A DNA stretch of 64,000 nt from Rickettsiales bacterium (GCA_013214525.1 JABSSG010000001.1:18514-82513); one strand, 5' to 3'. Numbered from the stretch's first letter, positions 5,273 to 56,700 are shown. Notes: generated by a model from the letters alone, not told the origin. A program made the numbers and translations.

Positions 5273-5338
5273 ACCCTCTACCTTAAAATTTTGAATTTAC
5301 TATTCTATCAAAACTTATGCTATACAAAAGTAAAAAAG

Positions 5339-7231: not shown

Positions 7232-7248
7232 AAGCTAAGCCAATTAAA

Positions 7249-8229
7249 TTAAATATTATTCTTTCTAATATCAAGATAGCTAAAAGCAAGCTCTGTTAAC
7301 ATTCTACCACGAGGAGTACGATGAATAAAACCTTGCTGAATTAAATAAGGCTCGGTAGTTTCTTCAAGCGAGTCTTTATGTTCAGATAAAGCCGTAGCAA
7401 TAGTTTCAATACCCACAGGACCACCTTTATATTTTTCTGCTATAAATTTTAAATATTTATAGTCATTAGCATCAAGACCATATTGATCCACTTCTAATTT
7501 GGAAAGTGCATCACGTGCCATTTCTTGATCAATTAGTTTCTGATTGCTACATTGCGTAAAATCGGCTACACGCCTTAGTAACCGCAATGCTATTCTCGGA
7601 GTACCTCGAGATCGCTTAGCAATCTCCATACTACCTCCGTCATCTAGTTTTATACCTAATGTTTTTACACTATTTTTAAGAATAAATTTAAGATCTTCCA
7701 ATTCATAAAAATTTAATTTCAATGGTATGCCAAATCTTTCACGTAGAGGTTTACTAACTAAACCAATACGAGTAGTAGCACCTATCAAAGTAAACTTAGC
7801 AATATTAATGGTAACAGTTCGTGCAGCAGGACCTTCACCTATTATTAAGTCTAATTTATAATCTTCCATAGCAGGATATAATACTTCTTCAACCGCAATA
7901 TTAAGTCTATGTATTTCATCAATAAAAAATACATCTCCTTTTTGTAAATTTGTAAGGATAGCAGCAACATCAGCAGCTTTGGTAAGTAAAGGACCAGAAC
8001 TAGTTTTAAAATTTACTCCCATCTCTCTTGCTATGATTTGTGCCATTGAGGTTTTACCAAGACCAGCTGGTCCAGATAACAAAACATGATCAAGTGATGA
8101 CCCTCTATTTTTTGCAGCCTTAATAAAAATTTTTAGGTTATTCTTTATCTGTTCTTGACCAATAAATCTCTCCAATGACAAAGGTCTAACAGTATTTTCA
8201 ATAATATTTTCTTGATTTGTATCTTCCAT
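7249..8229 (-). CDS. ruvB: Holliday junction DNA helicase RuvB
   Basis: Walker [18 protein letters not shown] motif, full-length 326 aa. Confidence 0.95.
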
Positions 8230-8238
8230 TATAAAATT

Positions 8239-8850
8239 CTATTTTACTGCCATCTTATTTAATGCTGATTTAATAATTTCATTAAGATTATAATGAGGAA
8301 ATTCTGAAATTATACTAGAAACAAGTTCAAATGCTTCTGACTTCCTAATTCCTAAATTGATAAGAACAGAAACTGCATCATTTCTTATACTCTTAACTTC
8401 ACTAAAATTAGTACCACTATGGTCTTCAGATATTTGTTCAGTAAAATCACTTATAAATTTTCTATCTCTTAACTCAGCAAATATACGATCAACCATTTTA
8501 GGACCAATGCCGCTAATATCACCAAACACTTTTCTATCCTTCATATTAACAGCTATACAAAACTGATCTGGCGTTAATTTACTCAAAATCTGCATAGCCA
8601 TTTTAGGCCCAATACCTTTAACTGTAGTAGCAGCAAGAAAACATTCTTTCTCTTGTTTCGTTGTAAAACCATAAAGAGCAATGGATTCCTCACGAACACA
8701 TGTTTCTATAAATAAAGATATAACATCATCTAATGTAATATTGGATAAAGTTTTAGCAGAACAATGAACTAAATACCCAACTCCATTTACATCTACAATA
8801 ATATGCTCATTCTCAATTGATTCAATCTTACCTTTTAATTTTCCAAACAT
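8239..8850 (-). CDS. ruvA: Holliday junction DNA helicase RuvA
   Basis: 203 aa with GVGY and tandem HhH motifs (GIGPKMA, GIGPKMV); lies directly upstream of ruvB. Confidence 0.9.
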   Translation of the reverse strand: MFGKLKGKIESIENEHIIVDVNGVGYLVHCSAKTLSNITLDDVISLFIETCVREESIALYGFTTKQEKECFLAATTVKGIGPKMAMQILSKLTPDQFCIAVNMKDRKVFGDISGIGPKMVDRIFAELRDRKFISDFTEQISEDHSGTNFSEVKSIRNDAVSVLINLGIRKSEAFELVSSIISEFPHYNLNEIIKSALNKMAVK

Positions 8851-13077: not shown

Positions 13078-14274
13078 TTATATAACCATATTAAATATCT
13101 CAACTGAAATAACTATCATCCCTATAATAATCGATAGCACTATTGGCCATTTATACTTCAGCTCATAATAATAGAACGAAGTTATCTTAGCTTTATATAA
13201 TAAATAAATAGGCAATAAAATTGCTATAACCACTAATATCATTCCAGCAAAACTCAAAGCTGATATGAAAGCATGTGGAATCACAATAGCGACCAAACAA
13301 GCTGGAAACAACGTTAAAACAGAAGCAAATACATTCCGTGAAGCAATATTTGGCACTGATCTAGTAAGCATCTTTCTTAAAGATTCACATAACCCTACGC
13401 TTACTCCCAGAACCGATGTAATAATTGCTAACAAAGAAATCCACCAAATCAATACCTGTACATACCGCCACTTAATCAATATTGTAAGTTCTTTAATTAA
13501 CTCTCCAACGTCTACTTGTCCTGCTATCATCAACTTGTAAAATGCAGGATTTTTATTATACAACACACCTAGTAAACTACATGTCCAAATAATATATGTT
13601 ATTGCTGGAATAAGACTGCCCCAAAAGAAAACTTTTTTTAACATTCTTGAATCTCTATTGCAATAATTAGTGAGTGTATGAAAGATCACTTGGAATCCAA
13701 ACGAGGTAAACACTATTGGTATCGCTACTCTCCAACTTGATATTTCCACATAGCTAGCAGAAACCATAGGTATTTGAGTCCAATTAACAGTAGTAACAAG
13801 ACCCAGTATTAGTATTGCAATAGTTGTAATTGCTCCTACAAATAACAATCTATTAATATAGTCTATCCATTTAATAGGAAATAAAAGCATCAATGTTATA
13901 ATAAATGTATAAATTATTGCTATATTACTCTGAGATAAACTTGTATCGAACATTTTTTGTAATAGAGAAGAACCACCATAGATATAGGCAGAGAGCAAAG
14001 AATACGAAAGTAACTTAATACTAGATACTCCTATCATTTCTGCTATTTTTCCTGAGTAACGCTTCCCTAACTCACCTAAACTTAACCCACGCCCAGCCTG
14101 TAAATTCAATTCAAGATGTATGAGAGACGTATAATACATAACTACCCATATTGATAGCATTAATACTATACTTAAAACTAAACCTAATTTGGCAAGCACC
14201 ATAGGTAATGCTATCATACCACTCCCTATACAAGTACCTGCCACTAACATAATGGAACCAATTTTTTTCTGCAT
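13078..14274 (-). CDS. Aromatic amino acid (Tyr/Trp-type, HAAAP family) permease
   Basis: 398 aa, about 11 TM segments, N-terminal LVAGTCIGSGMIALP motif typical of TyrP/Mtr-like transporters. Confidence 0.7.
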   Translation of the reverse strand: MQKKIGSIMLVAGTCIGSGMIALPMVLAKLGLVLSIVLMLSIWVVMYYTSLIHLELNLQAGRGLSLGELGKRYSGKIAEMIGVSSIKLLSYSLLSAYIYGGSSLLQKMFDTSLSQSNIAIIYTFIITLMLLFPIKWIDYINRLLFVGAITTIAILILGLVTTVNWTQIPMVSASYVEISSWRVAIPIVFTSFGFQVIFHTLTNYCNRDSRMLKKVFFWGSLIPAITYIIWTCSLLGVLYNKNPAFYKLMIAGQVDVGELIKELTILIKWRYVQVLIWWISLLAIITSVLGVSVGLCESLRKMLTRSVPNIASRNVFASVLTLFPACLVAIVIPHAFISALSFAGMILVVIAILLPIYLLYKAKITSFYYYELKYKWPIVLSIIIGMIVISVEIFNMVI

Positions 14275-14628
14275 TTTATAATATGATTAAATTATTTGAT
14301 TAATAAGCCTACTTTTTGTAGTTAGCTTTATAAAAAATTTAGAAATTGTCGTGAGAGTTAATAATAGCGAGCTAGAACCCGCTAAAACAAAAAGAAAAGG
14401 AATTATTATATGCAATTGCACTCAGCCTATCTAAAATAGAGAAAATTAAACCTAGCATATAATTAATAAAATTGTTTACCAATAAGTATAAACACTAACA
14501 AACTCCTTCCCGTTAGTCAATGGAATTTCTAAAATTGCTTGGTTCACAATAGATTCAAGTTAAAAATATGAATTAATTCTTCATAATGACAAAATAGATA
14601 CTTGAAAATTATATATCGCAGTATCATC

Positions 14629-14698
14629 TATACTATATCGATCATACTTGAAAATTCCTATTTTTAAGCATGCCCCTGCGAAAGCAGGGGATTGAAAA
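14629..14698. repeat. Family A arm fragment with nested CCCCTGC-GAAA-GCAGGGG hairpin
   Basis: TATACTATATCGATCATACTTGAAAATTCCTATTTTTAAG followed by the GC-clamped hairpin at 14673..14690. The same arrangement occurs inverted at 23301..23340. Confidence 0.65.
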
Positions 14699-14722
14699 TA
14701 AAAACAATAAATTTTTATAAAC

Positions 14723-17272
14723 ATGAACTTAGAAAAATTTACAGACAAAGCACGTACTATACTACAAACAGCCCATTCCTCAGCTATTGCAGCTGGTCAT
14801 CAAAGAATTCTACCAGAACACATATTAAAGAGCATGCTTGATGACTCAGACAGCATCACATCACAACTTATAACAAATTGTGGTGGAAATATTAATGCTA
14901 TATACAGAGATTTAGAAAATTTTTTAAATAAATTACCTTCTGTAAGTGGCAACCAAGCTGAACAAGTGTTTTTAACTCAAGAAACAGCTAAGGCTTTAGA
15001 GAAAGCAACTTCACTTGCAAAAAAATCAGGAGATGAATTCGTAACAGCTGACAGATTATTGCAAGCAATTACAAGTTTTAGTGAAGTATTAAAATCACAG
15101 AATATAACAGAACAAAAAATAGAAGAAGCTATAAATAAACTAAGGAAAGGAAGAAAGGCAGATAGCAAAACAGCAGAAGTTAGCTATCAAGCTTTAAAGA
15201 AATATTCAAAAGATATTACACAACTCGTCCTAGATGGAAAAATCGACCCAGTGATCGGTAGAGATGAAGAAATTAGAAGAACTGTTCAAGTTCTTTCAAG
15301 AAGAACTAAAAATAATCCTGTTTTAATAGGGGAGCCAGGAGTTGGTAAAACCGCTATAGTAGAAGGGCTTGCTATTCGTGTAACACATGGCGATGTCCCT
15401 GATAACTTAAAAAATGCACGGGTAATTTCCTTAGACCTAGGGGCATTAGTAGCAGGAGCTAAATTTCGTGGAGAATTTGAGGAGCGTTTAAAAGCAGTTT
15501 TACATGAAATAGAGAATTCCCAGGAAGATATAATTTTATTCATAGACGAATTACATATGCTGGTAGGAGCTGGAAAAGTAGAAGGTGCAATGGATGCATC
15601 CAACCTATTAAAACCTGCACTTGCTCGTGGTGAATTACATTGTATAGGTGCTACAACTCTTGATGAATATAGAAAATACATTGAAAAAGATGCAGCACTT
15701 GCAAGAAGATTTCAATCCGTTTATGTAGCAGAACCTACTATTGAAGATACAATCTCCATCTTAAGAGGGATAAAAGAGAAATACGAACTACATCATGGGA
15801 TACGAATTTCTGACACCGCCATAGTAGCAGCAGCAAAACTTTCTCATAGATATATAACTGACCGATTTCTTCCTGATAAAGCAATAGATTTAGTAGATGA
15901 AGCAGCAAGCAGAGTACGCATGGAAGTATTTAGCAAGCCAGAAGACATAGACGAATTGGATAGAAGAATTATTAAATTACGAATGGAAGAATCAGCTTTA
16001 AAAAAAGAAGAAGACAAAGCCTCAAAAGAAAGACTTACTAAAATTCGTAAAGAATTAGTTTCCTTAGAGGAAAAATCACTTGAGCTAACCAGTAAATGGA
16101 AAGCAGAAAAAACAAAATTAGAAAGCATCAATAAATTAAAAGAGCAATTAGATACAGAAAAACATAATCTTGAAACAGCAGAACGATCAGGTAATTTAGC
16201 TAAAGCAAGTGAAATTGCTTACGGCATCATTCCAGAAATTCAAAAAAAAATAAAAGATGCAGAAAAGATAAAAAAGGATGATGGATTATGGAAAAATGTT
16301 GTTAGTGAAGCAGATATAGCCAATGTTGTTTCGCGTGCTACAGGTATTCCTGTACAAAAAATGCTAGAAGGTGAAAAAACAAAACTTCTCACTATGGAAG
16401 AAATTTTAAGCAAATCCGTAGTAGGACAAAAAGATGCAATTATTGCTGTCAGCAACGCAATTAGAAGGTCTAGAGCTGGCATTCATGATGTCAACAAACC
16501 TATTGGCTCCTTCTTATTTTTAGGACCAACTGGAGTAGGTAAAACTGAATTGTCAAAAGCCTTAGCACAATTTATATTTGACGATAGCTCTTGCATGACC
16601 AGAGTAGATATGTCTGAATATATGGAGAAACACTCAGTATCACGCTTAATAGGAGCCCCTCCTGGATATGTAGGATATGAACAAGGTGGAGCATTGACTG
16701 AATCAATTAGAAGAAGATCATATCAAGTAATATTATTCGATGAGATAGAAAAAGCACATCCAGATGTTTTTAATTTGCTGCTACAAGTATTAGATGACGG
16801 TAGACTAACCGACGGTCAAGGGAGAACTGTAGATTTCAGAAATACTATAATTATTCTTACATCAAATATAGGAGCAAATCTTTTAATTGAAAAAGGTAAT
16901 GAAGCTAAAAAAGAAGTTTTAGATTTAGTTAGATCATCTTTCCGCCCAGAATTTATAAACAGATTAGATGAAATAATAATATTTCATAAGCTGTCTATGG
17001 ATGATCTAATAAAAATAGTTGAAATACAAATATCAAATTTTGAGGAATTACTTAGAGATAAAAAACTAAAACTTACCATAACAAATTCTGCAAAAGAATG
17101 GTTAGCAGAAAATGGTTTTGATAATACATATGGTGCACGACCTCTAAAAAGATTAATTCAAAAAGATATCCAAAATACATTAGCTCAAATGATTTTGTCT
17201 GGAGAAATAAAAGAAGACGATAATATTAAAATAGACTCAGATAAAAACGGTATAAAAATATCAAAATTATAA
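14723..17272 (+). CDS. clpB: Chaperone ClpB (AAA+ disaggregase)
   Basis: 849 aa with two Walker A sites ([18 protein letters not shown]), a long middle coiled coil, and the ClpB N-domain. Confidence 0.95.
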
Positions 17273-19038: not shown

Positions 19039-20277
19039 TTACTTAGAGTAATAAAGCTTCTTATTTAAAGTACCTTCCCATTTATCAACAATTAAAGTTA
19101 TTGTCGCATCTCCTGTGATATTTAATGTGGTACGAGTCATATCTAATATTCTATCAATACCAACTATAAGAGCAATTCCATCTATTGGAATATTTACAGC
19201 CGAAAGCACCATTGGCAACATTATTATACTCCCTGAAGGAATACCTGCTCCCCCTATTGAACCTAATGTTGAGGTAAATATTATCATTATGTAGTCCATA
19301 ACGCTTAAATCTATTTGATAAACCTGTGCAAAAAATAAAACACAAATTCCAAGATAAATCGCTAAACCATCCATATTTACAGCAGCACCTAATGGCAATA
19401 CAAAAGAAGTACTTACTGGTGAAACGCCAAGCTTCCTACAAACTTTCATAGTTGTTGCAAGTGTAGCTTTACTGCTACTAGTAGAAAGAGCTATAAGTTG
19501 GTATTCTACACTTTTTTTGTAAAACGGCATTGGTGAAAGACCGGTGAACATAATCATTACACCAAAAATGATATATTGAACAAGAATTGCCAAAAAAAAT
19601 ACTAGAATTAATGCACCTAAACTCTGTAATACAGCTATCCCTTGTGTGCCGACAACTGCTGCAGAAAAACCAAAGGCACCATAAGGAGCTAGTTTCAATA
19701 TCACTTCTATCATCTTAAAGACAATTTTGAAACCTACATCAAATACTTTTACTAAATCTTCCCTTTGTTCTCGTAACAAATTTATGACAAAGCCAGTGAA
19801 GAATGAGAAAAATACGACTTGCAAGAATTTTCCAGATACTAAAGCATTTAAAGCATTATCCGGAATTATATCCTTCATTATTTTAGTAATATTAAATGTA
19901 TTGGTAGATGCTTCTCTATGAAGTTCCTTCAACCCTAAAGATTCTAGCTCTAACCCTGAACCAGGTTTTAGAAAATGACTAAGTAGTAATCCTAACGCTA
20001 CTGCAAAAGTTGTAGTAACCAAAAAAAGCACCACAGCTTTACCAGTAATTCTGGTTAATTTTGATGTATCCTCTACATTTATTATTGCCGTTACAATCGA
20101 GATATAAATCAAAGGCACTATCACCATCTTGATTAATCTCATAAACAATTCACCAATTGGCTGTAAATGAACCGCTTTCTCCTGAAAAATTAACCCTGTA
20201 ACTATACCAAGAACAAGACCGATCATTACTTGTTGCCAAAGCAAAGCTTTTGTCCAAAATTTAACTATACGTTGCAT
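19039..20277 (-). CDS. Dicarboxylate/amino acid:cation symporter (GltP-like), tandem copy 1
   Basis: 412 aa with DAACS motifs (SSSKATLATT, NMDGLAI, DRILDMTRTTLNITGDA). Confidence 0.85.
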   Translation of the reverse strand: MQRIVKFWTKALLWQQVMIGLVLGIVTGLIFQEKAVHLQPIGELFMRLIKMVIVPLIYISIVTAIINVEDTSKLTRITGKAVVLFLVTTTFAVALGLLLSHFLKPGSGLELESLGLKELHREASTNTFNITKIMKDIIPDNALNALVSGKFLQVVFFSFFTGFVINLLREQREDLVKVFDVGFKIVFKMIEVILKLAPYGAFGFSAAVVGTQGIAVLQSLGALILVFFLAILVQYIIFGVMIMFTGLSPMPFYKKSVEYQLIALSTSSSKATLATTMKVCRKLGVSPVSTSFVLPLGAAVNMDGLAIYLGICVLFFAQVYQIDLSVMDYIMIIFTSTLGSIGGAGIPSGSIIMLPMVLSAVNIPIDGIALIVGIDRILDMTRTTLNITGDATITLIVDKWEGTLNKKLYYSK

Positions 20278-20592: not shown

Positions 20593-21834
20593 TTATTTAG
20601 CATAATAAAGTTTTTTATTTAAAGTGCCTTCCCATCTATCCACAATTAAAGTTATTGTAGCATCTCCTGTAATATTTAATGTGGTACGAGTCATATCCAA
20701 TATCTTTTCAATACCAATGATAAGGGCAATTCCATCTATTGGAATATTTACTGATGCAAGAACCATTGGCAACATTATTATTCCTCCTGACGGAATGCCT
20801 GCTCCTCCCATCGAACCCAATGTTGAAGTAAATATTATCATTATGTAATCCATAACACTTAAATCAACCTGATAAATTTGTGCAAAAAACAATGCACAAA
20901 CTCCGAAAAAAATTGCCAACCCATCCATATTAATAGCAGCACCTAATGGCAATACAAAAGAAGTATTCACTGGTGAAATACCTAGCTTTCTACACACACG
21001 CATAGTAGTTGCAAGAGTTGCTTTACTGCTACTTGTAGAAATAGCTATAACTTGGTATTCAAGACTTTTTCTATAAAAAGGTAATGGCGAAAGACCAGTA
21101 AACATAATCATTATACCAAAGATGATATATTGAACAAAAATTGCCAAGAAAAACACCAGAATTAATGCACCTAAGCTCTGTAACACAGCTATTCCTTGTG
21201 TACCGACAACTGCTGCAGAAAAACCAAAGGCACCATAAGGAGCTAGTTTCAATATCACTTCTATCATTTTAAAAACAATTTTGAAACCTACATCAAATAC
21301 TTTTACTAAATCTTCCCTTTGTTCTCGTAACAAATTTATGACAAAACCAGTGAAGAATGAGAAAAACACAACTTGTAGCAACTTTCCAGACACTAAGGCA
21401 TTCAACGCATTATCTGGAATAATATCCTTTATAATTTTGGAAACATTAAAAGCACTAGCAGACGCCTCTTTATGAACTTCTTTTAATCCCAAAGCTTCTA
21501 ACTCTAATCCCGAACCAGGTTTTAGAAAATAACTAAACAACAAGCCTAACGCTACTGCAAAAGTTGTGGTAACAAAGAAAAGAGCTATTGCTTTACCAGT
21601 AATCCTAGTTAATTTTGATGTATCTTCTACATTTATTATTGCTGTTACAATCGAGATATAAATCAAAGGCACTATCACCATCTTGATTAATCTCATAAAT
21701 AACTCCCCAATTGGCTGTAAGTGAACCGCTTTATCCTGAAAAATTAACCCTGTAATTATACCAAGAACAAGACCGATCATTACTTGTTGCCAAAGCAAAG
21801 CTTTTGTCCAAAATTTAATTATAGCCCTCATCAC
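20593..21834 (-). CDS. Dicarboxylate/amino acid:cation symporter (GltP-like), tandem copy 2
   Basis: 413 aa, collinear with copy 1; roughly nine in ten residues identical by eye. Confidence 0.85.
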   Translation of the reverse strand: MMRAIIKFWTKALLWQQVMIGLVLGIITGLIFQDKAVHLQPIGELFMRLIKMVIVPLIYISIVTAIINVEDTSKLTRITGKAIALFFVTTTFAVALGLLFSYFLKPGSGLELEALGLKEVHKEASASAFNVSKIIKDIIPDNALNALVSGKLLQVVFFSFFTGFVINLLREQREDLVKVFDVGFKIVFKMIEVILKLAPYGAFGFSAAVVGTQGIAVLQSLGALILVFFLAIFVQYIIFGIMIMFTGLSPLPFYRKSLEYQVIAISTSSSKATLATTMRVCRKLGISPVNTSFVLPLGAAINMDGLAIFFGVCALFFAQIYQVDLSVMDYIMIIFTSTLGSMGGAGIPSGGIIMLPMVLASVNIPIDGIALIIGIEKILDMTRTTLNITGDATITLIVDRWEGTLNKKLYYAK

Positions 21835-21870: not shown

Positions 21871-22347
21871 ATGGAATATAATTTAACTATCAAGAAATTT
21901 ATTAATAATATAAGCACACAAGGCTCGCTGCTTGGCGTTGACTATGGGAAAAGACGTATAGGTCTTAGCATAAGTGATATTACACGAAAATTCGTTTCTC
22001 CTGTAGGAACATTAGATAACAAAAATATAGAAGATTCATTATTAGCAATAATAGAGTTAATTAAAAATAAAAATATTTCTGGTGTTATTATAGGATACCC
22101 ATTGCAACTTGATGGTACAGAAGGTCAGCAATGTCAAGAAGTTAAAAAATTTGCTAAATCTCTGTTGCAAAAACAGCCTATCCCAATATTTTTTCAAGAT
22201 GAAAGATTTTCAACCAGAGAAGCACAAACAATATTAAAGAATTTAAATATGAAAAGAAAACGCCGCGATCAAAAAGATAATGAAGTAGCAGCGTATAATA
22301 TATTAAAAACAGCTTTACAATTATTGAATAATCATCTTAACTTCTAG
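21871..22347 (+). CDS. ruvX: Putative pre-16S rRNA nuclease / Holliday junction resolvase-like RuvX (YqgF)
   Basis: LLGVDYGKRRIGLSISD N-terminal motif and DERFST motif. The start is set at ATG 21871 because the track ORF begins further upstream, inside the divergent symporter gene. Confidence 0.8.
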   Translation: MEYNLTIKKFINNISTQGSLLGVDYGKRRIGLSISDITRKFVSPVGTLDNKNIEDSLLAIIELIKNKNISGVIIGYPLQLDGTEGQQCQEVKKFAKSLLQKQPIPIFFQDERFSTREAQTILKNLNMKRKRRDQKDNEVAAYNILKTALQLLNNHLNF

Positions 22348-22942
22348 TTCTGCTCTTATCTGCGTCTTTTTTTATTGAAACTTTTATTTGCTTTTTCCCA
22401 ACATTTGATAATGCCTGTCTCATCCTTTTGACAACTCCTTTTAAACCCTTTATTTTTGAAAATTCTTTTCCTTTCAAAATTTCTTTACTTTTTATAAGTG
22501 CTTTTTCAGAATTATCAATATCACGCCATAATTTATAATCTTCTCCTTTGCTAAACATCATTTTCAACTTAGAAGGCTTACCTCCTAACTGCTCCTCTAG
22601 CTGTTTCTTATAATTTCTGATTTCATATAAATTTCCATCTATAGCTTTCTCTTCTATTTGTCTCAAATATTCATTCTCTCTATTACGCATTAAATCCTGT
22701 GCTGACAAAGATGTTTTTTTAATATTTTTAAGCGTTTTACCAATTTTATCACGTAATAATGGCATTCTTTGCTCTTTTAATTTTTTCTCAGTTCCCTCAA
22801 ACTTCTTTAAAAATCTATCTACATCTTTTATTTGTCTCTCTTTTGCTCCACTTGCCGTTAGTGCTGTTTTATACGCTTGGATATATGTTTTATATGGCTT
22901 CATATCTTCCAGTTTGCCATTGATATCCTCTAACGAAGGCAA
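22337..22942 (-). CDS. Hypothetical Lys-rich coiled-coil protein (probably the 3' part of a frameshifted gene starting at 23079)
   Basis: 201-aa ORF from a TTG start. An upstream 39-codon ORF (22960..23079) joins it by a 1-nt shift in a T6 run. Confidence 0.5.
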   Translation of the reverse strand: MPSLEDINGKLEDMKPYKTYIQAYKTALTASGAKERQIKDVDRFLKKFEGTEKKLKEQRMPLLRDKIGKTLKNIKKTSLSAQDLMRNRENEYLRQIEEKAIDGNLYEIRNYKKQLEEQLGGKPSKLKMMFSKGEDYKLWRDIDNSEKALIKSKEILKGKEFSKIKGLKGVVKRMRQALSNVGKKQIKVSIKKDADKSRTRS

Positions 22943-30520: not shown

Positions 30521-32671
30521 TTAATTGTTTTGCTTAGCTAAATCTTCAACTTGCTTTTGCTCTTTATCTTTCTCATCTGTTAATTCGTCTGTTACCCAAG
30601 TTCTAGGATCATACCATTTCCTCTTTACAAGAGCCTTAGGTTTACTTGTCTTATCTATGGTAGATTTCCTACGAATAGTTGGCTTGGTTATAATTTCTTG
30701 CCTTTTTCTCAATCTCTCTCTCGGTTCATATCCTCTGATTGCAGGCTTCCTTTGCTTTTTATCTCTCAATCTATCTTTACCAAACTTCTTCTGCTTTTCT
30801 AAACCTTGTTCTTCTTTCTTTTCTTCTTTCTTTTCTTCTTTCTTTTCTTCTTCTTCTCCATCTTTGCCATCATGTTTTTTCTTTGCAGCTATCATTTCAT
30901 CTTGTAACTCTTTTAAGTTACTTTCAACATCTGTGCCTGCTAAATCTGCAATTAATTGATTAATTTGATCAATTCGACTATTATAGTTCCCTTCATCTGT
31001 ATTACCAAAAGCATCTATACTATCGTATGTTATATCTGTCTTATAATACTGCGCTAATGATTTAACTAAATCATCTTTCAATTTTGTATTATGTTTTAGC
31101 TGATTTATATATTTCTTCACATTCTTAACTTCATCAAGTCTTAAATCATAAATCATATTGAGTTCTATCATATCATAAGTACCTTTTGGATCAAAACTCA
31201 TTAACATCTGCACTTTTTGAGGAGAAGTTTCTGCAGATATATTACTTATAAATTCTCTCATTTTTTGATTTGTCTTCCTTGAATCAAGTCTATCACCTAC
31301 TTGTCGAACAAAACTAGCCGCATCAACCTTATCATTGTTATATAAATCTTCAAATACATCTAATACACTCCCTAAAGCTGCACTCTCAAATGTACTCTTC
31401 CGCTTTGGCCCTATAGCCCGCACAACTTTATCATACTCTGATATAAAATCCTCTATAGCTTTTTGTTTAGCTTCCGAAGTTAGACCTCTTGCTTCCTCTA
31501 TAGCAAGATCATTTGCCATTTCGCTACTTTTAGTAGCCAACTCTGCAGAAGTAAATAAATATGGTATCACTTCATTTAACTTACTCTTATCTTTCGCACT
31601 CTCAGACCCTTCCACTAACTTCTCTGCAATACCTTTTACTTTTGCAATATTACCATCATTACCAAATGCATCACTTCTATTGATCTCTTGAAGTTTTGTT
31701 ACTATTGAATCTGTTAATCCTAAATCCTGCAATGGATCTACTCTTTTCTTATCATGACATTTACTTGAATCTTTACAAAGAGCTCTAATATATGAAGCAT
31801 CAGGAGCTGCTTTGCCTTCTGTATTATAATGCAAATCACTATGAAATCCTCCATCTGGTGTAAAATGTAATAGATGAAGTGTAGTATCAGGCTTTTCTTC
31901 GCCATATGGCTGCGTTGCTATTAAATATGAGTCTCCTATATTAGAGCCTATCTTAAATGTCCCATACTGCTGCAACAATCCATCCACTATATCATCTTCG
32001 GTATATGGTTTAGATGTTATCCCACCAGTTATCCTGCTCTTCTTTTTTGCAATTTCTCTAACATCTTCTATTTTTAATTCAGAATTAGGAATTTCAAATT
32101 CCTTACCTTTAAGCAGCTTCCTAATTGTTTTTTTGCCACCATCTCTTTGGGGTGTTTCCATATCAATCATTTCCAATTTGCCATCCTTATTTTGCATAAT
32201 TTTTGCAATATCCGTTACTTTCCACTCTTCTTTTGGCATGGTACCCCTATTTATTTCCCTAAGATTACCAGACTCATCCATTTGATAATGAGCGTGGCTT
32301 GTACTACCATCATGATGCATTTTTACATAATTCACTACACCATCATCTGTTCCCATCACACGCATCTCTTTAATGCTAGAATCTTTATCTCTATATATTA
32401 TATCATTTGCCGTATCTAAAACTGCTTCTCTCTTGGGAGCTTCCCAATCTGTAGTCTTGCTTACATCTGGTCTCTCATCTCTAAATGAAAGCGATTCTTC
32501 TTGGTCTTCTTCTGCTTGTCTCTCTGCTTCTTCACCTTCCTCATCACCAGCATCCAAAGCACTAGAAACCTGAGTTATATTAATTAATAGTAGTAAAATC
32601 ACGAGCATTTTTAGAAAATGCTGTAAATAAGTCTTATAGCTACTCATAATTGTTTGTTGTTCATTATTCAT
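30521..32671 (-). CDS. Large acidic secreted/surface protein, candidate cargo of the adjacent TpsB-like transporter (module 1)
   Basis: 716 aa. Signal-like N-terminus ...LLLLINITQVSSA/LD, an acidic stretch, His/Gly-rich beta-like N-region, one DLGLT motif, an (EEKK)n tract and a basic C-terminus with KRKWYDPRTW. It starts 16 nt downstream of tpsB-like gene 1. Confidence 0.6.
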   Translation of the reverse strand: MNNEQQTIMSSYKTYLQHFLKMLVILLLLINITQVSSALDAGDEEGEEAERQAEEDQEESLSFRDERPDVSKTTDWEAPKREAVLDTANDIIYRDKDSSIKEMRVMGTDDGVVNYVKMHHDGSTSHAHYQMDESGNLREINRGTMPKEEWKVTDIAKIMQNKDGKLEMIDMETPQRDGGKKTIRKLLKGKEFEIPNSELKIEDVREIAKKKSRITGGITSKPYTEDDIVDGLLQQYGTFKIGSNIGDSYLIATQPYGEEKPDTTLHLLHFTPDGGFHSDLHYNTEGKAAPDASYIRALCKDSSKCHDKKRVDPLQDLGLTDSIVTKLQEINRSDAFGNDGNIAKVKGIAEKLVEGSESAKDKSKLNEVIPYLFTSAELATKSSEMANDLAIEEARGLTSEAKQKAIEDFISEYDKVVRAIGPKRKSTFESAALGSVLDVFEDLYNNDKVDAASFVRQVGDRLDSRKTNQKMREFISNISAETSPQKVQMLMSFDPKGTYDMIELNMIYDLRLDEVKNVKKYINQLKHNTKLKDDLVKSLAQYYKTDITYDSIDAFGNTDEGNYNSRIDQINQLIADLAGTDVESNLKELQDEMIAAKKKHDGKDGEEEEKKEEKKEEKKEEQGLEKQKKFGKDRLRDKKQRKPAIRGYEPRERLRKRQEIITKPTIRRKSTIDKTSKPKALVKRKWYDPRTWVTDELTDEKDKEQKQVEDLAKQNN

Positions 32672-32687
32672 ATCAAAACCCTAATCA

Positions 32688-34457
32688 TTACCAACTGAAC
32701 TCTTTACTAATTAGAAACCTAAAAATACTACTGTTATTATTCTTATCTCCATTTACCTTAATACTTCTAACTGTTGGAAATTCAACTGTACTCTCAGCAT
32801 AAAATCCATAAGGGAAAAACAGTCTCACACCAACACCTAATGCTGGCAATGTAGATTTATTAAAATAAATTATATCACGATGCTCTTTTCTTGCAGATGT
32901 AGTATTGTGGTTGATAAAATGTGTTATATCAAAAAAACCAAAAAATTGTCCTAAGTTAAGAAATTTTTTAATTTTTGGTTTCTCAAACTCTTTACTATAT
33001 CTAAGCTCTACCTTACCTGAAATACCTTGGTCTGCTGATACAAGCCCAGTCTTATAACCACGAGCTGTATTAGAGGTATTAATTGAATATCTATGCTCAC
33101 TAGGCAATAATTTTCCTGTATATTGATATGACGCCTTCAAGAACAATGAAAAATTGTTAGGTAAAGGCTGATCTCTATACCAATCAATTATAAAATAATT
33201 AAAACTTTTATCAAAATCTATCCTGTCTGTACTATCTTTATCATAAGAAACTCTATTTAAAGTCCAATTGAAATATGGGAAAAACCAGTTCTCAACATTT
33301 AATGGGTCTACTATCTTTATTTTACCACCCAATGACCCCATCACATAGTCATAACCCCTTGTCTTACTAGTGCCAGAATAATGCTCCGTATCACGTCTTT
33401 CTGCAGCTAATTCTAATTTTACACTACGGTTATTATTTAATACTGCGTATTGATCAAGCCTTCCTTTAACAATGTTAGTTTTATTATCCTTTGAACTCTC
33501 TGCAAGATTAGGATCATCTTTTAAATGAGAGAAAAATATACTTGCCGAAGTACCATATGTATTCAACCTCTTTAAATACCCCAACGTTATCAATTGAAAT
33601 CTACTCGGCTTATCTGAAGTACCAGCACTTACCATTACAGAATCATTTGATAGAACATTATAAAATTGTGAAAAAGCCTCAAATTGATGTTTTCCTAAAT
33701 CAGAAGTACCATGATTATTTACTGAAACACTAGCTTGACCTCTTTCTGTACTGACATGCATAAGTAAATCTGCTACTTTATTACTCTCTATTTCTCCAAG
33801 CTGTTCAATTTCATATTCTGTGTTATAACCATGTATTTTGTTTATAAGAAGCAAATATCTTTGCAAATCTTTGGTTTTTAAAGGGTTTGCCTTCTCAATT
33901 TTTTCTACCAATTTTAAGAAAAGCTTATTTTTCAATATTTTCTTATCTCTTTTGTCATCAACCAAGCCAATAACAACTGTTCTAAGTTTACCTTCAATAA
34001 TCTTCACTCTTAGCTCAGGTTCAACTACTTCAACATACGCCACCGGTAAAGCATAACCTTCCTTGTGATAGTATTTTTCAATATCCTCAACAATTTGCCT
34101 TGCTTCATTCTCACCAATCTTTTTCTTCAAATAGGGCTTGATTACAGAACGTATTTTACCAGTCTTAATTGCTTTATTGCCACTAATTATAATTTTACTT
34201 ATCTTGTTATGTTGTTGCCAAGAAACTTTTGATTCTTTTCTACTTGAATGCTCTGGCACTGGCTTTTGTTCAGATTGTTTACGCCTATGAAGTTCTGATA
34301 TAATCTGCTTATCTATAAATGTTCTTTTCTGGTTATGATGTGCGGCTACAGAATTTCTTGCATCTGCTGCATTTTCTATTGCTATAGCTGATTTAACCGT
34401 GAAAATATTTCCAAATAATACCAAAGCTATACTTAAACTTGTCAAAAACTTTTTCAT
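32688..34457 (-). CDS. ShlB/FhaC/HecB-family (TpsB-type, Omp85 superfamily) outer-membrane transporter, copy 1
   Basis: Signal peptide MKKFLTSLSIALVLFGNIFTVKSAIA. POTRA_2-like segment IIISGNKAIKTGKIRSVIKPYL...YYHKEGYALPVAYVEV...IIEGKLRTVVIG. DN-like NNHGTSDLGK segment, an L6-type ARGY motif, and a terminal ...KEFSW beta-signal. Confidence 0.75.
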   Translation of the reverse strand: MKKFLTSLSIALVLFGNIFTVKSAIAIENAADARNSVAAHHNQKRTFIDKQIISELHRRKQSEQKPVPEHSSRKESKVSWQQHNKISKIIISGNKAIKTGKIRSVIKPYLKKKIGENEARQIVEDIEKYYHKEGYALPVAYVEVVEPELRVKIIEGKLRTVVIGLVDDKRDKKILKNKLFLKLVEKIEKANPLKTKDLQRYLLLINKIHGYNTEYEIEQLGEIESNKVADLLMHVSTERGQASVSVNNHGTSDLGKHQFEAFSQFYNVLSNDSVMVSAGTSDKPSRFQLITLGYLKRLNTYGTSASIFFSHLKDDPNLAESSKDNKTNIVKGRLDQYAVLNNNRSVKLELAAERRDTEHYSGTSKTRGYDYVMGSLGGKIKIVDPLNVENWFFPYFNWTLNRVSYDKDSTDRIDFDKSFNYFIIDWYRDQPLPNNFSLFLKASYQYTGKLLPSEHRYSINTSNTARGYKTGLVSADQGISGKVELRYSKEFEKPKIKKFLNLGQFFGFFDITHFINHNTTSARKEHRDIIYFNKSTLPALGVGVRLFFPYGFYAESTVEFPTVRSIKVNGDKNNNSSIFRFLISKEFSW

Positions 34458-34609
34458 AACCGCATCTATTACTATTTTCACTTAATTATAACAGTTCTTT
34501 AACAAAATAAAAAACTTCCCCCCTCTTATGTATAAAAATAATAATTGTGTTAATAATGTTGTGACTCAAATGCCATATTTATTAACCTCAATTAGGATTA
34601 TTAATATTT

Positions 34610-51923: not shown

Positions 51924-53711
51924 ATGCATAATAATTATATCACAAGAAAGCTTTCAGTTAACCTGACCTTAAGCTTTCTATTACTCAGCAATATTTTCTT
52001 TACTAAAATAACTATAGCGGTAGAAAATGCAAATGACGTTCAAAATGCTACTGCAGCACATCACAGCCAGAGAAAAACATTTATTGATAAACAAATAACC
52101 TCTGAATTTCACCGTTATAAACAAGCCAAGAAAAAAGCTACAACAAAATATTTAAAGAAGAAAATGTCTGACACTTCCTGGCAACAACATAAAAAAATTA
52201 TGAAAATTTTTGTTACAGGAAATAAAAACATAAAAACAGCTAATATCAAAGCTATTATAAAACCTTATCTACGCAAAGGAGTAACTGAAAAGGAAACAAA
52301 ACTTATTTCAGATGATATTGAAAATTATTATCGCAAACAAGGATATTTCCTACCAGTTGCACATGTTGAAATCATTGACTCAACTCTTAAAATAACAATC
52401 ATAGAAGGTAAGATAAACACCGTTGTAATTGGTTTTGCTGACCCTAAAAGAGATAAAAAAGTTTTAAAAAATAAACGATTTTTAGATTTAATACAAAAAA
52501 TTGAAATAGCATCCCCACTTAAAACAAAATACTTAGAAAAAAACTTATTATTAATAAACAAAATTCATGGCTACACTGTTAATTATGAATTAAGACCAGT
52601 AGAACAACTAGAAGGTAATAATGTTGCAGACCTAATTATAGAAATCTCAACTAAAAAAGGGACGGCTAGCATTTCAGCAAATAACCATGGCACTTCCGAC
52701 TTAGGAAAACATCAACTCACTGTTTCTGCACAAGCATTTAATGTCACCTCTAATGATTCCTTACTCCTCACAGCTGGAACTTCAGATAAACCAAAAAAAT
52801 TTCAACTAATAACAGGAGGGTATCTAAAACGACTAAATTCTTACGGCACTTCAGCAAGTATATTTCTTTCACATTTGAAAGATGATCCTCAAACTACTTC
52901 TGACTCAAAAGATAACATAAGCAATATTATAAAAGGTCGTTTAGATCAATATGTAGTTTTAAATAATGCCCATCAACTTAAATTAGAGCTAAGTGCTGAA
53001 CAACGTGATGTAGAACATTACTCTGGTAGCGTTAAAACCAGTGAATATAAATATGCAATGGGATCATTTGGTGGAAAAATTAAATTAACTGATCCGCTAG
53101 AAGTAGAAAACTGGTTTTTCCCATATTTTCACCAAGTTTTAAATAAAGTCTCCTATGAAAAAGATAGTACAGAAAAAAGAAACTTCGATAGAGATTTTAA
53201 TTATTTTACTATTGACTATAACAGAACTCAACCTCTACCAAAAGACTTTGCTTTATTCGTACAAGCCTCATATCAATATACAAATAAATTACTTCCTAGC
53301 GAACATCGCTATTCAATCAATTCATCTAATACTGCAAGAGGATATATAGCTGGGCTTGTATCAGCAGACCAAGGAATCTCAGGAAAACTAGAGTTAAGAT
53401 ATACTAGAAAGATTAGCAAAAATAAAATCAAAAAATTCCTTGAAGATGCACAAATCTTCGCTTTCTATGATGTCACCCATTTTATTAAGCACAACAAAAC
53501 AATAGATAGAAAAGAACATCAAGATGCAATGTATTTCAATAAATCCACTCTTTCAGGTGTTGGTGTAGGTTTTCGATTATTTTTTCAAAATGAATTTTTT
53601 GCCGAAGGAACTGCAGAATTTCCAACTGTTAAAAATATTATGATAAATGGATCAAAAGAAAAGAATAATCCTCTCTATAGATTCTCAATAACTAAGGAAT
53701 TTAATTGGTAA
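51924..53711 (+). CDS. ShlB/FhaC/HecB-family (TpsB-type, Omp85 superfamily) outer-membrane transporter, copy 2
   Basis: 595 aa, collinear with the 597-aa copy; well over half of residues identical by eye. POTRA_2-like IFVTGNKNIKTANIKAIIKPYL...YYRKQGYFLPVAHVEI...IIEGKINTVVIG, an ARGY L6-type motif, and a terminal ...KEFNW. Confidence 0.75.
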   Translation: MHNNYITRKLSVNLTLSFLLLSNIFFTKITIAVENANDVQNATAAHHSQRKTFIDKQITSEFHRYKQAKKKATTKYLKKKMSDTSWQQHKKIMKIFVTGNKNIKTANIKAIIKPYLRKGVTEKETKLISDDIENYYRKQGYFLPVAHVEIIDSTLKITIIEGKINTVVIGFADPKRDKKVLKNKRFLDLIQKIEIASPLKTKYLEKNLLLINKIHGYTVNYELRPVEQLEGNNVADLIIEISTKKGTASISANNHGTSDLGKHQLTVSAQAFNVTSNDSLLLTAGTSDKPKKFQLITGGYLKRLNSYGTSASIFLSHLKDDPQTTSDSKDNISNIIKGRLDQYVVLNNAHQLKLELSAEQRDVEHYSGSVKTSEYKYAMGSFGGKIKLTDPLEVENWFFPYFHQVLNKVSYEKDSTEKRNFDRDFNYFTIDYNRTQPLPKDFALFVQASYQYTNKLLPSEHRYSINSSNTARGYIAGLVSADQGISGKLELRYTRKISKNKIKKFLEDAQIFAFYDVTHFIKHNKTIDRKEHQDAMYFNKSTLSGVGVGFRLFFQNEFFAEGTAEFPTVKNIMINGSKEKNNPLYRFSITKEFNW

Positions 53712-53717
53712 ATTTTT

Positions 53718-56700
53718 ATGTATCAATTTTTAAAAAATAAACATCCTAAAACTACCTCACGACATATTCTGCATATTCTTTTAATGTTAATTTTAGTAGC
53801 TTTACTAACTATATATAATACATCTTATACTGAAACCTCAGACGATAGTGAAACCGAAGCAGAAGAGATAGAAACCGAAGAAGCTACTGATAATATAGAG
53901 GAAAACATCAATGGTACTATAGAAGCTGCAAAAGAACACTTCTTAGACCCAAATGCCAAAGTTAAAGTAGACCTAACAAAGCACGAAATTAAACTTTATA
54001 CCTCACATGACAAAAATACAAATACATATTATACCTATGCAACAGTAGTAGATGAAAATGGCAATGTTATGGACCACATAAATTTCACACAAAATAAGAA
54101 AGGAGATGTAACTAAATCTTCTGTTGGAGTAAAACCAAAAAATAGTTGGTGGAAAAACCATATATCTATAACGAAGTCCAGCCCTATTGCAGATGCCAAA
54201 ACAACCTATATCACAGGAGTGCTACCACGAGATAATCCCAACGCACGTTTTATAATGCATAGCTCTGAAGAAAAACATATAGATGCTGTAAAAAAGAATA
54301 AATCTGAAAACCTACTTAAAAATATACTTGCTAAAGATGTAAACTCTGTGAAAGCTATCGTTACAACCAACTTAAACGAAGATGAAGATAAAATTGATGT
54401 GCATTACATCCATAATCAAAAAGATGGATCACAACATAGCACACATTCATCCCAATCTGGAGAAGCAATTTCTAAACCAAGTTATTTCGATGAGTTATTT
54501 GAAAATTATGCTAAAGGAAAAACAGCTACTGTATCAAAGCTAGTAACATCTGAGAATGAGATCTGGAATACATATTTAGATTTAGAAAATACTAGTGCTT
54601 CTGATACCACACATGTAAAAAAATTATACATAAAGGCAGGAGGAACAGAAACAGACCTAACCCAAAAAGCTCTTAAAGAATTCAAGAAAACTTCAAGTAA
54701 AATCGATGCAAATCAAGCAGCAACATTAGGACTAACTGCAACTAACATTATTAATGATACAAATTTTGATCAAACCAAAGTACAAAATTTATACAATGCT
54801 CAACCTAAACCAAAAACTGGTACTAAACCTTCTTTTGATGAATTTCTAATCTCTTCATATAAAGATAATACAATCACTACCCCTGCAAGAGCAGTTGCTC
54901 TAGGACTAACTGCAACTAACATTGTTAATGATGCAAATTTTAATCAAACCAAAGTAAACGATCTATATGATGCCGAAACTTATACAGGATCTGGTAAAAA
55001 ACCAACTTTTAACAAATTTGTAGCTAGTAAATATAAAGATTACACAGTTAATGCTACAAGAGCAGTTGCTCTAGGATTAACTGCAATTAACATTGTTAAT
55101 GATGCAAATTTTAATCAAATTAAAGTACAAAATTTATATAATGCTCAACCTAAACCAAAAACTGGTATTAAACCTTCTTTTGATGAATTTCTAATCTCTT
55201 CATATAAAGATGATAAAATCACTACTGCCGCAAGAGCTACTGATCTAGGATTAACTGTGGATGACACCCTCAACTCAACTCTTAGCAAAGGTAAAGTAGA
55301 AGATTTATATATAAGTGAACAAAAATTTACATTTCTCAAAAGTGAGGAAACTACACAAACATTTGAAGCTTTTGTAACTGACTCTTTTGAAAATAACAAT
55401 ATCAAAACCACAGAAAGGGCTGCTGATCTAGGACTAACTTCAGCTAACACTGTCGGGACAACTCTTACTAAAGACAAAGTAAAGGATCTACATACTTTTG
55501 AACAAAAAGGTAAAAAAACTAAACAAACTTTCAATGCATTTCTAATCTCTTCATATAAAGATAATACAATCACTACCCCTGCAAGAGCAGTTGCTCTAGG
55601 ACTAACTGCAACTAACATTATTAATGATGCAAATTTTGATCAAACCAAAGTACAAAATTTATATAATGCTCAACCTAAACCAAAAAATGGTACTAAACCT
55701 TCTTTTGATGAATTTCTAATCTCTTCATACAAAGATGATAAAATCACTACTGCCACAAGAGCTGCTGATCTAGGATTAACTGCAGCTAACATTGTTAATG
55801 ATGCAAATTTTGATCAAGCTAAAGTACAAGGTTTATACAACGCTGAAATTGGACCTAAACTACCATTTATTCAGTTTGTAATTAACGCTTATGAAGGTGG
55901 CGAAATTACAAATGCTGCAAGAGCTACTGATCTAGGACTAACCGCAGAAAAGTCTCTTGTTGCATTCAGAGAAGATAACCTTAGTGCTACTAAAGCAAAA
56001 CAATTAGTTACTACTGATAAAATAATAACTGCTTTTCAAGATGGTAACCTTAATAAAGATAAGGCTGGAGAGCTACTTACAATTGAAGAGGTATTTAACG
56101 CATTCCTAGCAAAACAACTCAATGCACTACAAACTAAATATTTACACCTAGCAACCGGCGGTTCTCTATCCCAATTAACTCAAGAAGCACTGATCCAGTT
56201 TGCTGGCAACCGTATCACTCCAAAACAGGCTAAAAATTTAGGCGTTAACGAAGACCTAGCTATTGACCAATTCAAAGCTGGGAAACTTAATAAAGACAAA
56301 ACTAAATTATTAGTAACTCCTCAACAAGCATTTAAGGCATTTGAAAGTAACACAATAGATTCAAATCAAGCTCAAGCATTAGGCGTCACTTCTCAACAAG
56401 CTCTTGAGTCATATAACCAACTTGGAGGAATTAATCTAGCTCAAGCTAAAGCTTTAGGAGTGCAGAATAAAGATGTAATTGAATATTATAAAAATAAACT
56501 TACTAGCACAATAATAAAGGATTTCAATATAACAAACCAAGAATTACTTACTGCTGTTGGCAAAGAGATTATTGACACAGCTCAAGCTGTAAAACTAGGA
56601 ATAACATCACAACAGGCATTTAAGGCATTTGAAAGTAACACAATAGATTCAAATCAAGCTAAAGCTTTAGGAGTGCAGAATAAAGATGTAATTGAATATT

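Follow-up and report, generated by a model that had tools for sequence, protein, structure and literature searches.

The stretch of DNA analysed here, a 64-kb window of an assembly deposited as Rickettsiales bacterium (GCA_013214525.1, JABSSG010000001.1:18514-82513; all positions given below are those of the whole window), encodes two two-gene modules, in each of which an outer-membrane transporter of the TpsB family, the channel component of two-partner secretion (TPS), is followed closely and in the same orientation by a large open reading frame (ORF) that carries a hydrophobic, predicted Sec-type leader and has no assigned Pfam family (Table 1). We refer to the transporter genes as tpsB1 and tpsB2, and to the partner ORFs, which we consider candidate substrates of these transporters, as cargo1 and cargo2. 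A preliminary description, made from this DNA, had placed the two ORFs of module 1 16 nt apart and had reported that the arrangement recurs at 51924..57947; both sets of coordinates and the gap were reproduced, and the junction reads TAA-tgattagggttttgat-ATG, while in module 2 only 6 nt separate the two genes on the same strand. No terminator-like sites were found at the tpsB1-cargo1 junction, and no distinctive promoters were detected, promoter-like matches being as frequent as expected from shuffles. The tpsB1 and cargo1 genes are presumed to be co-transcribed; canonical alphaproteobacterial TPS loci likewise have tpsB followed by tpsA. The GTG start of tpsB1 at 34481 is uncertain, because the database copy of the protein (P0001, 589 aa) begins at an ATG located 8 codons downstream.

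Table 1. Position of the two modules and of their features in the window.
Feature	Position	Strand	Description
tpsB1	32688..34481	-	TpsB (ShlB/FhaC/CdiB-type) outer-membrane transporter; 597 aa from GTG, 589 aa from ATG at 34457
tpsB1-cargo1 junction	32672..32687	-	16 nt; AGGG Shine-Dalgarno-like element, no terminator
cargo1	30521..32671	-	Pfam-less partner ORF, 716 aa; putative non-canonical TpsA
cargo1 leader, aa 1-38	32558..32671	-	long n-region, hydrophobic core, VSSA/LD
cargo1 acidic tract, aa 39-75	32447..32557	-	pI 4.05; feature common to most partners in the clade
cargo1 N-domain, aa ~80-325	31697..32434	-	β-rich, two His/Gly-rich halves, ends at DLGLT
cargo1 central region, aa 326-600	30872..31696	-	no detectable relatives
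cargo1 (EEKK)n tract, then basic tail	30524..30865	-	pI 10.3; from composition and DNA repeat
cargo1 tail motif RKWYDPRTWVTD	30587..30622	-	sole patch aligned by BLAST between cargo1 and cargo2
tpsB2	51924..53711	+	paralogous TpsB, 595 aa; Pfam ShlB and POTRA_2
cargo2	53718..57947	+	partner ORF, 1409 aa, 6 nt after tpsB2
cargo2 N-domain, aa ~75-290	53940..54587	+	homologous to the cargo1 N-domain (phmmer, iterated profile, hhalign)
cargo2 repeats	54723..56102	+	eight ~57-aa repeats, each headed (A/D/T)LGLT; from repeat analysis
cargo2 basic-tail motif KKWYDLTRWFTK	57771..57806	+	from BLAST

TpsB1 is a genuine TpsB transporter of the ShlB/FhaC/CdiB type and not of the BamA/TamA type, as Pfam, profile searches of the PDB and fold searches agree. 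Both transporters match the Pfam ShlB (PF03865; 34.4 bits for TpsB1 and 42.0 bits for TpsB2, cut-off 22.7) and POTRA_2 families (PF08479; 31.7 and 32.4 bits, cut-off 24), and they align with each other without gaps at 62% identity. When the PDB was searched with a profile built from an alignment of 17 members of the TpsB clade (A1), the top match was the E. coli CdiB structure 6WIM (E=4.5e-10), aligned over nearly the full length, while BamA aligned over one POTRA segment only. The AlphaFold2 (AF2) model of TpsB1, computed from the same alignment, is confident (pLDDT 83, pTM 0.78) and consists of a leader, two helices corresponding to H1 and the linker (aa 38-54 and 56-71), two POTRA domains folded as β-α-α-β-β units between aa ~95 and ~245, and a large β-barrel, with the linker that follows H1 being basic. 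Despite an identity of just 14-15% to the solved TpsB structures, the model retrieves with Foldseek, on ranks 1-4, CdiB 6WIM (TM 0.69/0.76), FhaC 4QL0, CdiB 6WIL and FhaC 4QKY; BamA follows from rank 5 with lower TM-scores and TamA appears at rank 40. The preliminary assignment to the ShlB/FhaC type is thus borne out on all three grounds, and the choice it left between ShlB-type and BamA/TamA-type models is decided in favour of the former.

The same holds for the motifs it had recognised in the transporter, an ARGY motif at the tip of loop L6 (aa 473-476) and a terminal aromatic residue (W597). The family motifs listed for TpsB proteins are xRGY at the L6 tip and F/GxDxG on strand β13 (PMC5422565), and in the clade the former takes the form (A/G)RGY, with xRGY in 14 of 17 members, KGY in two and RTY in one, and a terminal tryptophan is conserved. 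The β13 motif, which is F/GxDxG in FhaC and CdiB, reads FxDx(T/S) here, more precisely F-(F/Y)-D-(I/V)-(T/S) at aa 516-520, with the aspartate, which in the family pairs with the arginine of L6, retained in 13/16 members and the last glycine replaced by threonine or serine. No patatin domain was found with Pfam in the 597-aa or the 595-aa protein and the passenger is encoded by a separate gene, which rules out a type Vd (PlpD-like) system; a TamA/TamB module is ruled out by the two POTRA domains, the low rank of TamA in the fold search and the absence of a DUF490 or AsmA-like domain from the partners. The transporter itself belongs to a known family and is ordinary in that respect, and the unusual part is the class of its cargos and their extreme diversity beside a conserved transporter.

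All features noted earlier in cargo1 are present in its translation: a leader ending in VSSA/LD, two His/Gly-rich stretches (VNYVKMHHDGSTSHAHYQMDESG and LHLLHFTPDGGFHSDLHYNTEG), a single DLGLT (aa 316), an (EEKK)n tract, which corresponds to a DNA tandem repeat at 30805..30865, and a basic tail. From its composition, the central region is presumably helical. Scans of cargo1 and cargo2 against Pfam and NCBIfam returned no credible family, and sequence and profile searches of the PDB with both proteins gave nothing meaningful. The AF2 model of the cargo N-domain, computed from a two-sequence alignment, is unreliable (pLDDT 38) and hints at two four-strand meanders separated by helices. While the products of the neighbouring genes and cargo2 are present in a collection of 15 billion proteins, the exact 716-aa translation of cargo1 is absent from it, and cargo1 may be uncalled or differently called in the public record. 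Word-indexed searches with full-length cargo1 returned zero matches, the query itself included, and so did searches with a five-sequence alignment of the N-domain; the cargos seem unreachable through that index.

By BLAST, cargo1 and cargo2 share no more than a short C-terminal patch, in which RKWYDPRTWVTD aligns with KKWYDLTRWFTK, an (R/K)KWYD..(T)RW.T motif found in both proteins within otherwise unrelated Lys/Arg-rich tails. Profile methods reach further. The N-terminus of cargo2 matches an ORF at positions 6309-7064 of a related metagenomic locus, L001 (phmmer, 9e-15), and this ORF in turn links to partner ORFs of L001 and a second locus, L011 (L001_1373 and L011_601); a profile of these cargo2, L001 and L011 sequences, built without cargo1, aligns with aa 122-325 of cargo1 at a hhalign probability of 96% (E=1.2e-9), and the trimmed cargo1 segment scores 52 in a shuffle control where 40 shuffles score 13.5 +/- 2.9 and at most 22.5. 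Judged by sequence, the N-terminal ~250 aa of cargo1 and cargo2 are NEVERTHELESS paralogous, a relationship visible to profile methods only. The homologues of the cargo1 N-domain are found in cargo2 and in the partners of L001, L011 and a third locus, L025 (five-sequence alignment A2), and the two His/Gly-rich stretches of cargo1 represent the two β-rich halves of the domain it has in common with cargo2. The DLGLT motif, which marks the end of the N-domain in cargo1, also heads the 57-aa repeat of cargo2, which occurs in 8 copies. When 1.84 billion cluster representatives were searched exhaustively with HMMER and a joint cargo1 and cargo2 profile, cargo2 itself (P0020) was matched and nothing else. 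The earlier claim that the module recurs in diverged form therefore stands for the transporters, which are true paralogues, but has to be narrowed for the cargos, which are not copies detectable by BLAST and whose homology is confined to the N-terminal region.

Beyond the eight DLGLT repeats, cargo2 continues with looser (A/K)LG(V/I) repeats, among them a 213-nt unit that is present 2.1 times at 56441..56884. This second repeat block (aa ~908-1055; 91% matches between the units) gives a marginal match to Pfam HTH_ParB (23.9 bits, cut-off 22.6), which may reflect not a domain that binds DNA but a repeated helix-hairpin. A version of cargo2 from a second assembly (P0021, 1465 aa; encoded on an ENA contig of 97.8 kb) differs solely by one extra ~57-aa DLGLT unit, reflecting either a polymorphism in repeat number or a collapse of repeats in the assembly.

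Two-partner secretion is defined by a TpsB channel and a cargo with a TPS domain folded as a right-handed parallel β-helix, and the current models of recognition, in which the POTRA domains bind the unfolded TPS domain and folding drives export, rest on this domain. To our knowledge, every known cargo of FhaC/CdiB-type channels has such a recognition domain. None was found here. Haemagg_act (PF05860), the Pfam family of the TPS domain, gave no match in cargo1 or cargo2 even at E<=1, and none at E<=0.01 in ten partner ORFs from other loci. We further took two canonical TpsA proteins from Azospirillum and Thalassospira plasmids, where their genes lie beside TpsB genes, built a TPS profile from them and used hhalign to compare it to the cargo profile as well as to 19 ORFs that adjoin TpsB genes, 17 of which are partners in the sense used here; the probability was <=0.5% throughout. 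A hidden Markov model (HMM) from the same two sequences, searched against the window and all related loci, returned nothing at E<=10, while it detects a betaproteobacterial TpsA from Burkholderia at 1.7e-64. The NPN[LGI] motif is present in 0 of the 19 ORFs, both cargos included, whereas both control TpsA proteins carry NPNG, so that the preliminary remark on the missing NPNL/NPNG motifs extends to both cargos. As far as sequence methods reach, then, the cargos have no TPS domain, and the comparison with Haemagg_act that had been proposed for cargo1 comes out negative by Pfam, hhalign and HMM alike.

Relatives of TpsB1 are few: about 19 were collected from 5.8 billion proteins, all from metagenomes or metagenome-assembled genomes and one of them labelled 'Rickettsiales bacterium', seven from JGI metagenomes, and only two among the GTDB species representatives. 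At every locus with usable flanks (L001-L005, L007, L009-L013, L019, L020, L023 and L025, with TpsB identities of 27-66%), the transporter gene is adjoined by at least one Pfam-less ORF with a hydrophobic leader, and in most of them this partner lies immediately downstream of TpsB, like in the window; on a further contig, for which no DNA is listed, an ORF also follows just downstream. The partners span 212-1422 aa and form about a dozen families, of which three (A, B and C) have multiple members. A Pfam scan of ten partner ORFs from other loci revealed no credible domain, and profile-profile comparisons of A, B and C with each other and with the rest, carried out with the leaders removed, yielded a probability <=2% for every pair tested, which rules out an N-terminal domain common to the partner families. 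A β-hairpin pattern seen by eye in most partners (a strand, a D/N-G turn and a second strand, with His and aromatic residues) found no statistical support, and a CdiI_2 match in L001_1373 was discarded, as it lies in repeats of which no single stretch passes alone. What the partners do have in common is a leader followed by an acidic tract, with a mean net charge of -5.8 over 35 aa; in 28 control ORFs, which come from the same DNA and likewise bear a leader, the mean is +0.5 (Mann-Whitney p=4e-6).

The partners diverge far faster than the transporter and yet track its relationships. Pairs of closely related transporters are matched by pairs of related partners in three cases: TpsB1 and the L025 TpsB (66% identity) with cargo1 and the L025 partner, P0003 and P0007 (65%) with L001_1373 and L011_601, and P0004 and P0006 (73%) with L003_659 and L010_802. 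L025 is a TARA scaffold that retains the trx-tpsB-cargo synteny of the window, and from the window to L025 the thioredoxins are 85% and the transporters 66% identical, while BLAST aligns just the 40-aa leader of the cargos (32558..32671 in the window with 2268..2387 in L025; 48% identical, 78% similar) and does not align the mature part, whose relationship emerges with phmmer (3e-12). That the leader is more conserved than the mature N-terminus suggests that it has a role beyond generic Sec targeting, like an extended signal peptide.

Several further observations were made on the partners and their loci. Outside the window, partner tails carry short W/F-rich motifs after Pro/Lys/Gln-rich linkers, such as KSFxDRxxEIL in L001, L003 and L010, and QSxWW in L007, L012 and L023. 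In L001, the region upstream of the intact TpsB (4463..7749) contains a 313-aa ORF with POTRA_2 only and the cargo N-domain in two fragmentary copies, and downstream of the cargo (14273..15580) there are two more ORFs in which an acidic tract follows a leader; the locus looks like a decayed duplicate module with extra partners, reminiscent of orphan cassettes. An Ala/Lys/Glu-rich, apparently coiled-coil ORF directly follows TpsB in L001 (9797..10060, where it is only 87 aa long), L003 (9828..11807), L010 (2965..5373) and L011 (3318..6116); it precedes the N-domain protein in L001 and L011 and, in L010, a large partner whose N-terminus is unrelated, and such a middle gene is absent from the modules of the window. 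Eight loci with transporters of 35-40% identity (L004, L007, L009, L013, L019, L020, L023 and L024) have the conserved order uvrC-pgsA-murA-tpsB-partner, continued in L007 and L023 by a 17-kDa antigen gene and a cation-efflux gene, and this conserved chromosomal position points to vertical inheritance within that clade. In L023, the TpsB falls into two ORFs (6758..7642 and 7900..8505), and either a pseudogene or a sequencing error may account for this. Among the leader-bearing control ORFs of the window there is a single outlier with an acidic tract, a DUF3857 protein of 630 aa (5339..7231, - strand; net -6 over 35 aa after the leader), and no TpsB gene lies beside it.

Taken together, we think it somewhat probable that each module is a lineage-specific, two-gene, probably co-transcribed type Vb unit that exports a non-canonical cargo. 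In essence, the preliminary description had proposed the same, namely a recurring functional unit that resembles type Vb systems and has an atypical cargo, and this reading came through each of the proposed tests that was run. In such a unit, the cargo would cross the inner membrane via Sec by means of its long leader and would reach the periplasm largely unfolded, where the acidic tract and the β-rich ~250-aa N-domain would take the place of the TPS domain as the element engaged by the two cognate POTRA domains. By analogy with FhaC and CdiB, it would then be threaded through the 16-stranded barrel once the H1 plug helix is displaced, and a variable passenger, made up of a unique region in cargo1 and of the DLGLT repeats in cargo2, would be displayed or released outside. 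We speculate that the C-terminal tail, which is rich in Lys/Arg and bears the WYD..RW motif, may hold the protein on the anionic cell surface or bind a target. What the analyses establish is the family and fold of the transporter, its operon-like pairing with the partner, the missing TPS homology as far as it can be detected, the relationship of the two N-domains, and an adjacency that is conserved and accompanied by co-divergence; recognition of the cargo, its export through TpsB and its location are inferred, and a role of the cargos as host-interaction factors is a speculation.

Several points weigh against this interpretation. With about a dozen unrelated partner families, no single conserved recognition domain can be named; the acidic tract is missing from two coiled-coil partners, L010_802 and L011_932; and a complementarity in charge between the POTRA domains and the cargos is ruled out as a general rule, since across the clade the net charge of the POTRA domains varies between -9 and +11. 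The leader of cargo2 lacks a clear AxA site for cleavage and might instead anchor the protein in a membrane, the sole model of the cargo N-domain, built from two sequences, is of low confidence, and a canonical TpsA could be encoded outside the examined 64 kb. A further-reaching version of the same idea, which we regard as conceivable though we would not bet on it, is that the TpsB clade has dispensed with the TPS domain altogether and that a minimal, degenerate N-proximal signal drives recognition. This signal would combine the extended, conserved leader, the acidic and probably disordered tract, and lineage-specific β-strands that augment the POTRA sheet. Unrelated passengers would then be swappable, which would explain how about a dozen fast-evolving families come to lie beside one conserved transporter.

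The alternatives differ in what they take the partner to be. If the N-domain were a canonical TPS β-helix that has diverged past sequence recognition, the modules would be an ordinary system in a fast-evolving, AT-rich lineage; the domain stands right after the leader, has a suitable size of ~250 aa and is β-rich, the evolutionary rate of the cargos is extreme, as the comparison with L025 illustrates, and the HMW1 subfamily of TPS proteins already does without NPNL (PMC5422565). Yet NPNG, described as highly conserved and crucial for folding and secretion in the same review (PMC5422565), is found in no partner, Haemagg_act, hhalign and the TPS HMM all fail at permissive thresholds, the low-confidence model hints at two four-strand meanders and helices instead of a continuous β-helix, and the N-termini of the other partner families are unrelated to this domain. 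HMW1B/HMW1 of Haemophilus influenzae does offer a precedent for a recognition domain unlike that of the FHA type, as it is without the NPNL hairpin, but HMW1 is described as keeping a β-helical TPS domain and NPNG (PMC5422565), neither of which is detectable in the cargos of the window, and on this description the two are set apart. We therefore consider a cryptic TPS domain improbable.

A partner that is not a substrate at all, but a periplasmic or inner-membrane accessory or an independently exported surface protein, with TpsB exporting some other protein or acting in assembly like TamA/TamB, strikes us as unlikely, if a little less so. It would fit the lack of an obvious signal-peptidase site in the cargo2 leader, which may be a signal anchor as in TamB, the absence of a domain common to the partners, and the two or three candidate partners present at some loci. 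The transporter, on the other hand, is of the TpsB type in both fold and profile, with two POTRA domains, and not of the TamA/BamA type; the partners have no DUF490, AsmA-like or other known domain; an accessory would be expected to be conserved, while the partners are hypervariable, repeat-rich and of widely different length, as is typical of exposed passengers; and the tight, operon-like linkage and the co-divergence extend across the surveyed loci. That the cargo ORFs are decaying, non-functional remnants beside a conserved transporter we find scarcely credible, even though they are orphans (with cargo2 alone recovered from the 1.84 billion representatives), the exact cargo1 translation is missing from the protein collection, and fragmentary N-domain and TpsB copies occur in L001. 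Their frames are uninterrupted over 716 and 1409 aa in DNA of 31% GC, in which chance stops are frequent, an independent Logan contig carries the same cargo1 sequence up to the point where that contig ends, cargo2 recurs full-length and near-identical in another assembly, an orthologue with a conserved leader lies on the TARA scaffold, and the domain architecture is consistent across relatives. The interpretation of the modules as type Vb units with a non-canonical cargo is accordingly the one we carry forward.

The surroundings of the modules are dense in housekeeping genes (ruvAB, clpB, thrS, kpsF, lptCAB, yidC, trx, mlaAC, rpsB-tsf, pnp and truB) and include three tRNAs, and the GC content of the window is 31%, with both modules at the level of the genome background. 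Both modules thus look like resident genes, as the trx-tpsB-cargo synteny retained in L025 also suggests, and a recent horizontal acquisition is ruled out by their GC content. As regards the organism, the preliminary description had spoken of Rickettsiales and of an intracellular bacterium. No indication of an intracellular lifestyle was found among the genes of the 64-kb window, whose contig was found in a marine metagenome run; the window does not support the affiliation to Rickettsiales either, to which only the labels of homologues and, in a related clade, the 17-kDa-antigen gene adjoining the module would point. Elsewhere in the window, we noted tandem genes for sodium:dicarboxylate symporters (SDF, GltP-type; 19039..20277 and 20593..21834, - strand), a Trp/Tyr permease gene (13078..14274) and three more Pfam-less ORFs on the - strand (3977..5272, 431 aa; 22337..22942, 201 aa; 61851..63473, 540 aa).

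Among known systems, the modules most resemble FhaC/FHA of Bordetella pertussis and CdiB/CdiA of E. coli and Acinetobacter, with which they have in common the transporter fold (H1, linker, two POTRA domains, 16-strand barrel, xRGY and a C-terminal aromatic residue), the order of tpsB and cargo, and a large, modular or repetitive cargo with a Sec leader. In contrast to FHA and CdiA, the cargos of the window have no detectable TPS domain, NPNG/NPNL motif, filamentous-haemagglutinin repeats or toxin/immunity cassette. TamA/TamB is similar in that a gene of the Omp85 family precedes a large gene for a protein with a hydrophobic segment at its N-terminus, but TamA has three POTRA domains instead of two, and the partners here are not conserved and lack a DUF490 or AsmA-like domain. 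FhaBC-type TPS homologues have been reported from aquatic or basal Rickettsiales families, from Deianiraeaceae and Gamibacteraceae, and from very few members of the remaining crown families, and their transporters were tentatively tied to attachment or toxicity (Castelli et al., 2024; PMC10847448); compared with those homologues (PMC10847448), the FhaB-like partner is replaced by orphan proteins in the modules described here. In the literature, we found no description of a TpsB transporter whose partner cargo is devoid of a TPS domain.

If the further-reaching version is correct, and the TPS domain has been dispensed with altogether, the modules would represent the first type Vb pathway that is independent of this domain, and would supply aquatic, Rickettsiales-like bacteria with surface or host-interaction proteins specific to the lineage. 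A conserved clade of TpsB transporters whose partners all lack the TPS domain would widen what a translocase of the Omp85 family can recognise and would provide a natural system in which to define the minimal export signal. For annotation, it means that surveys based on homology to FhaB and FhaC count such transporters and miss their cargos. It would also flag orphan, fast-diversifying exported proteins as a likely interface of aquatic bacteria with their hosts or prey.

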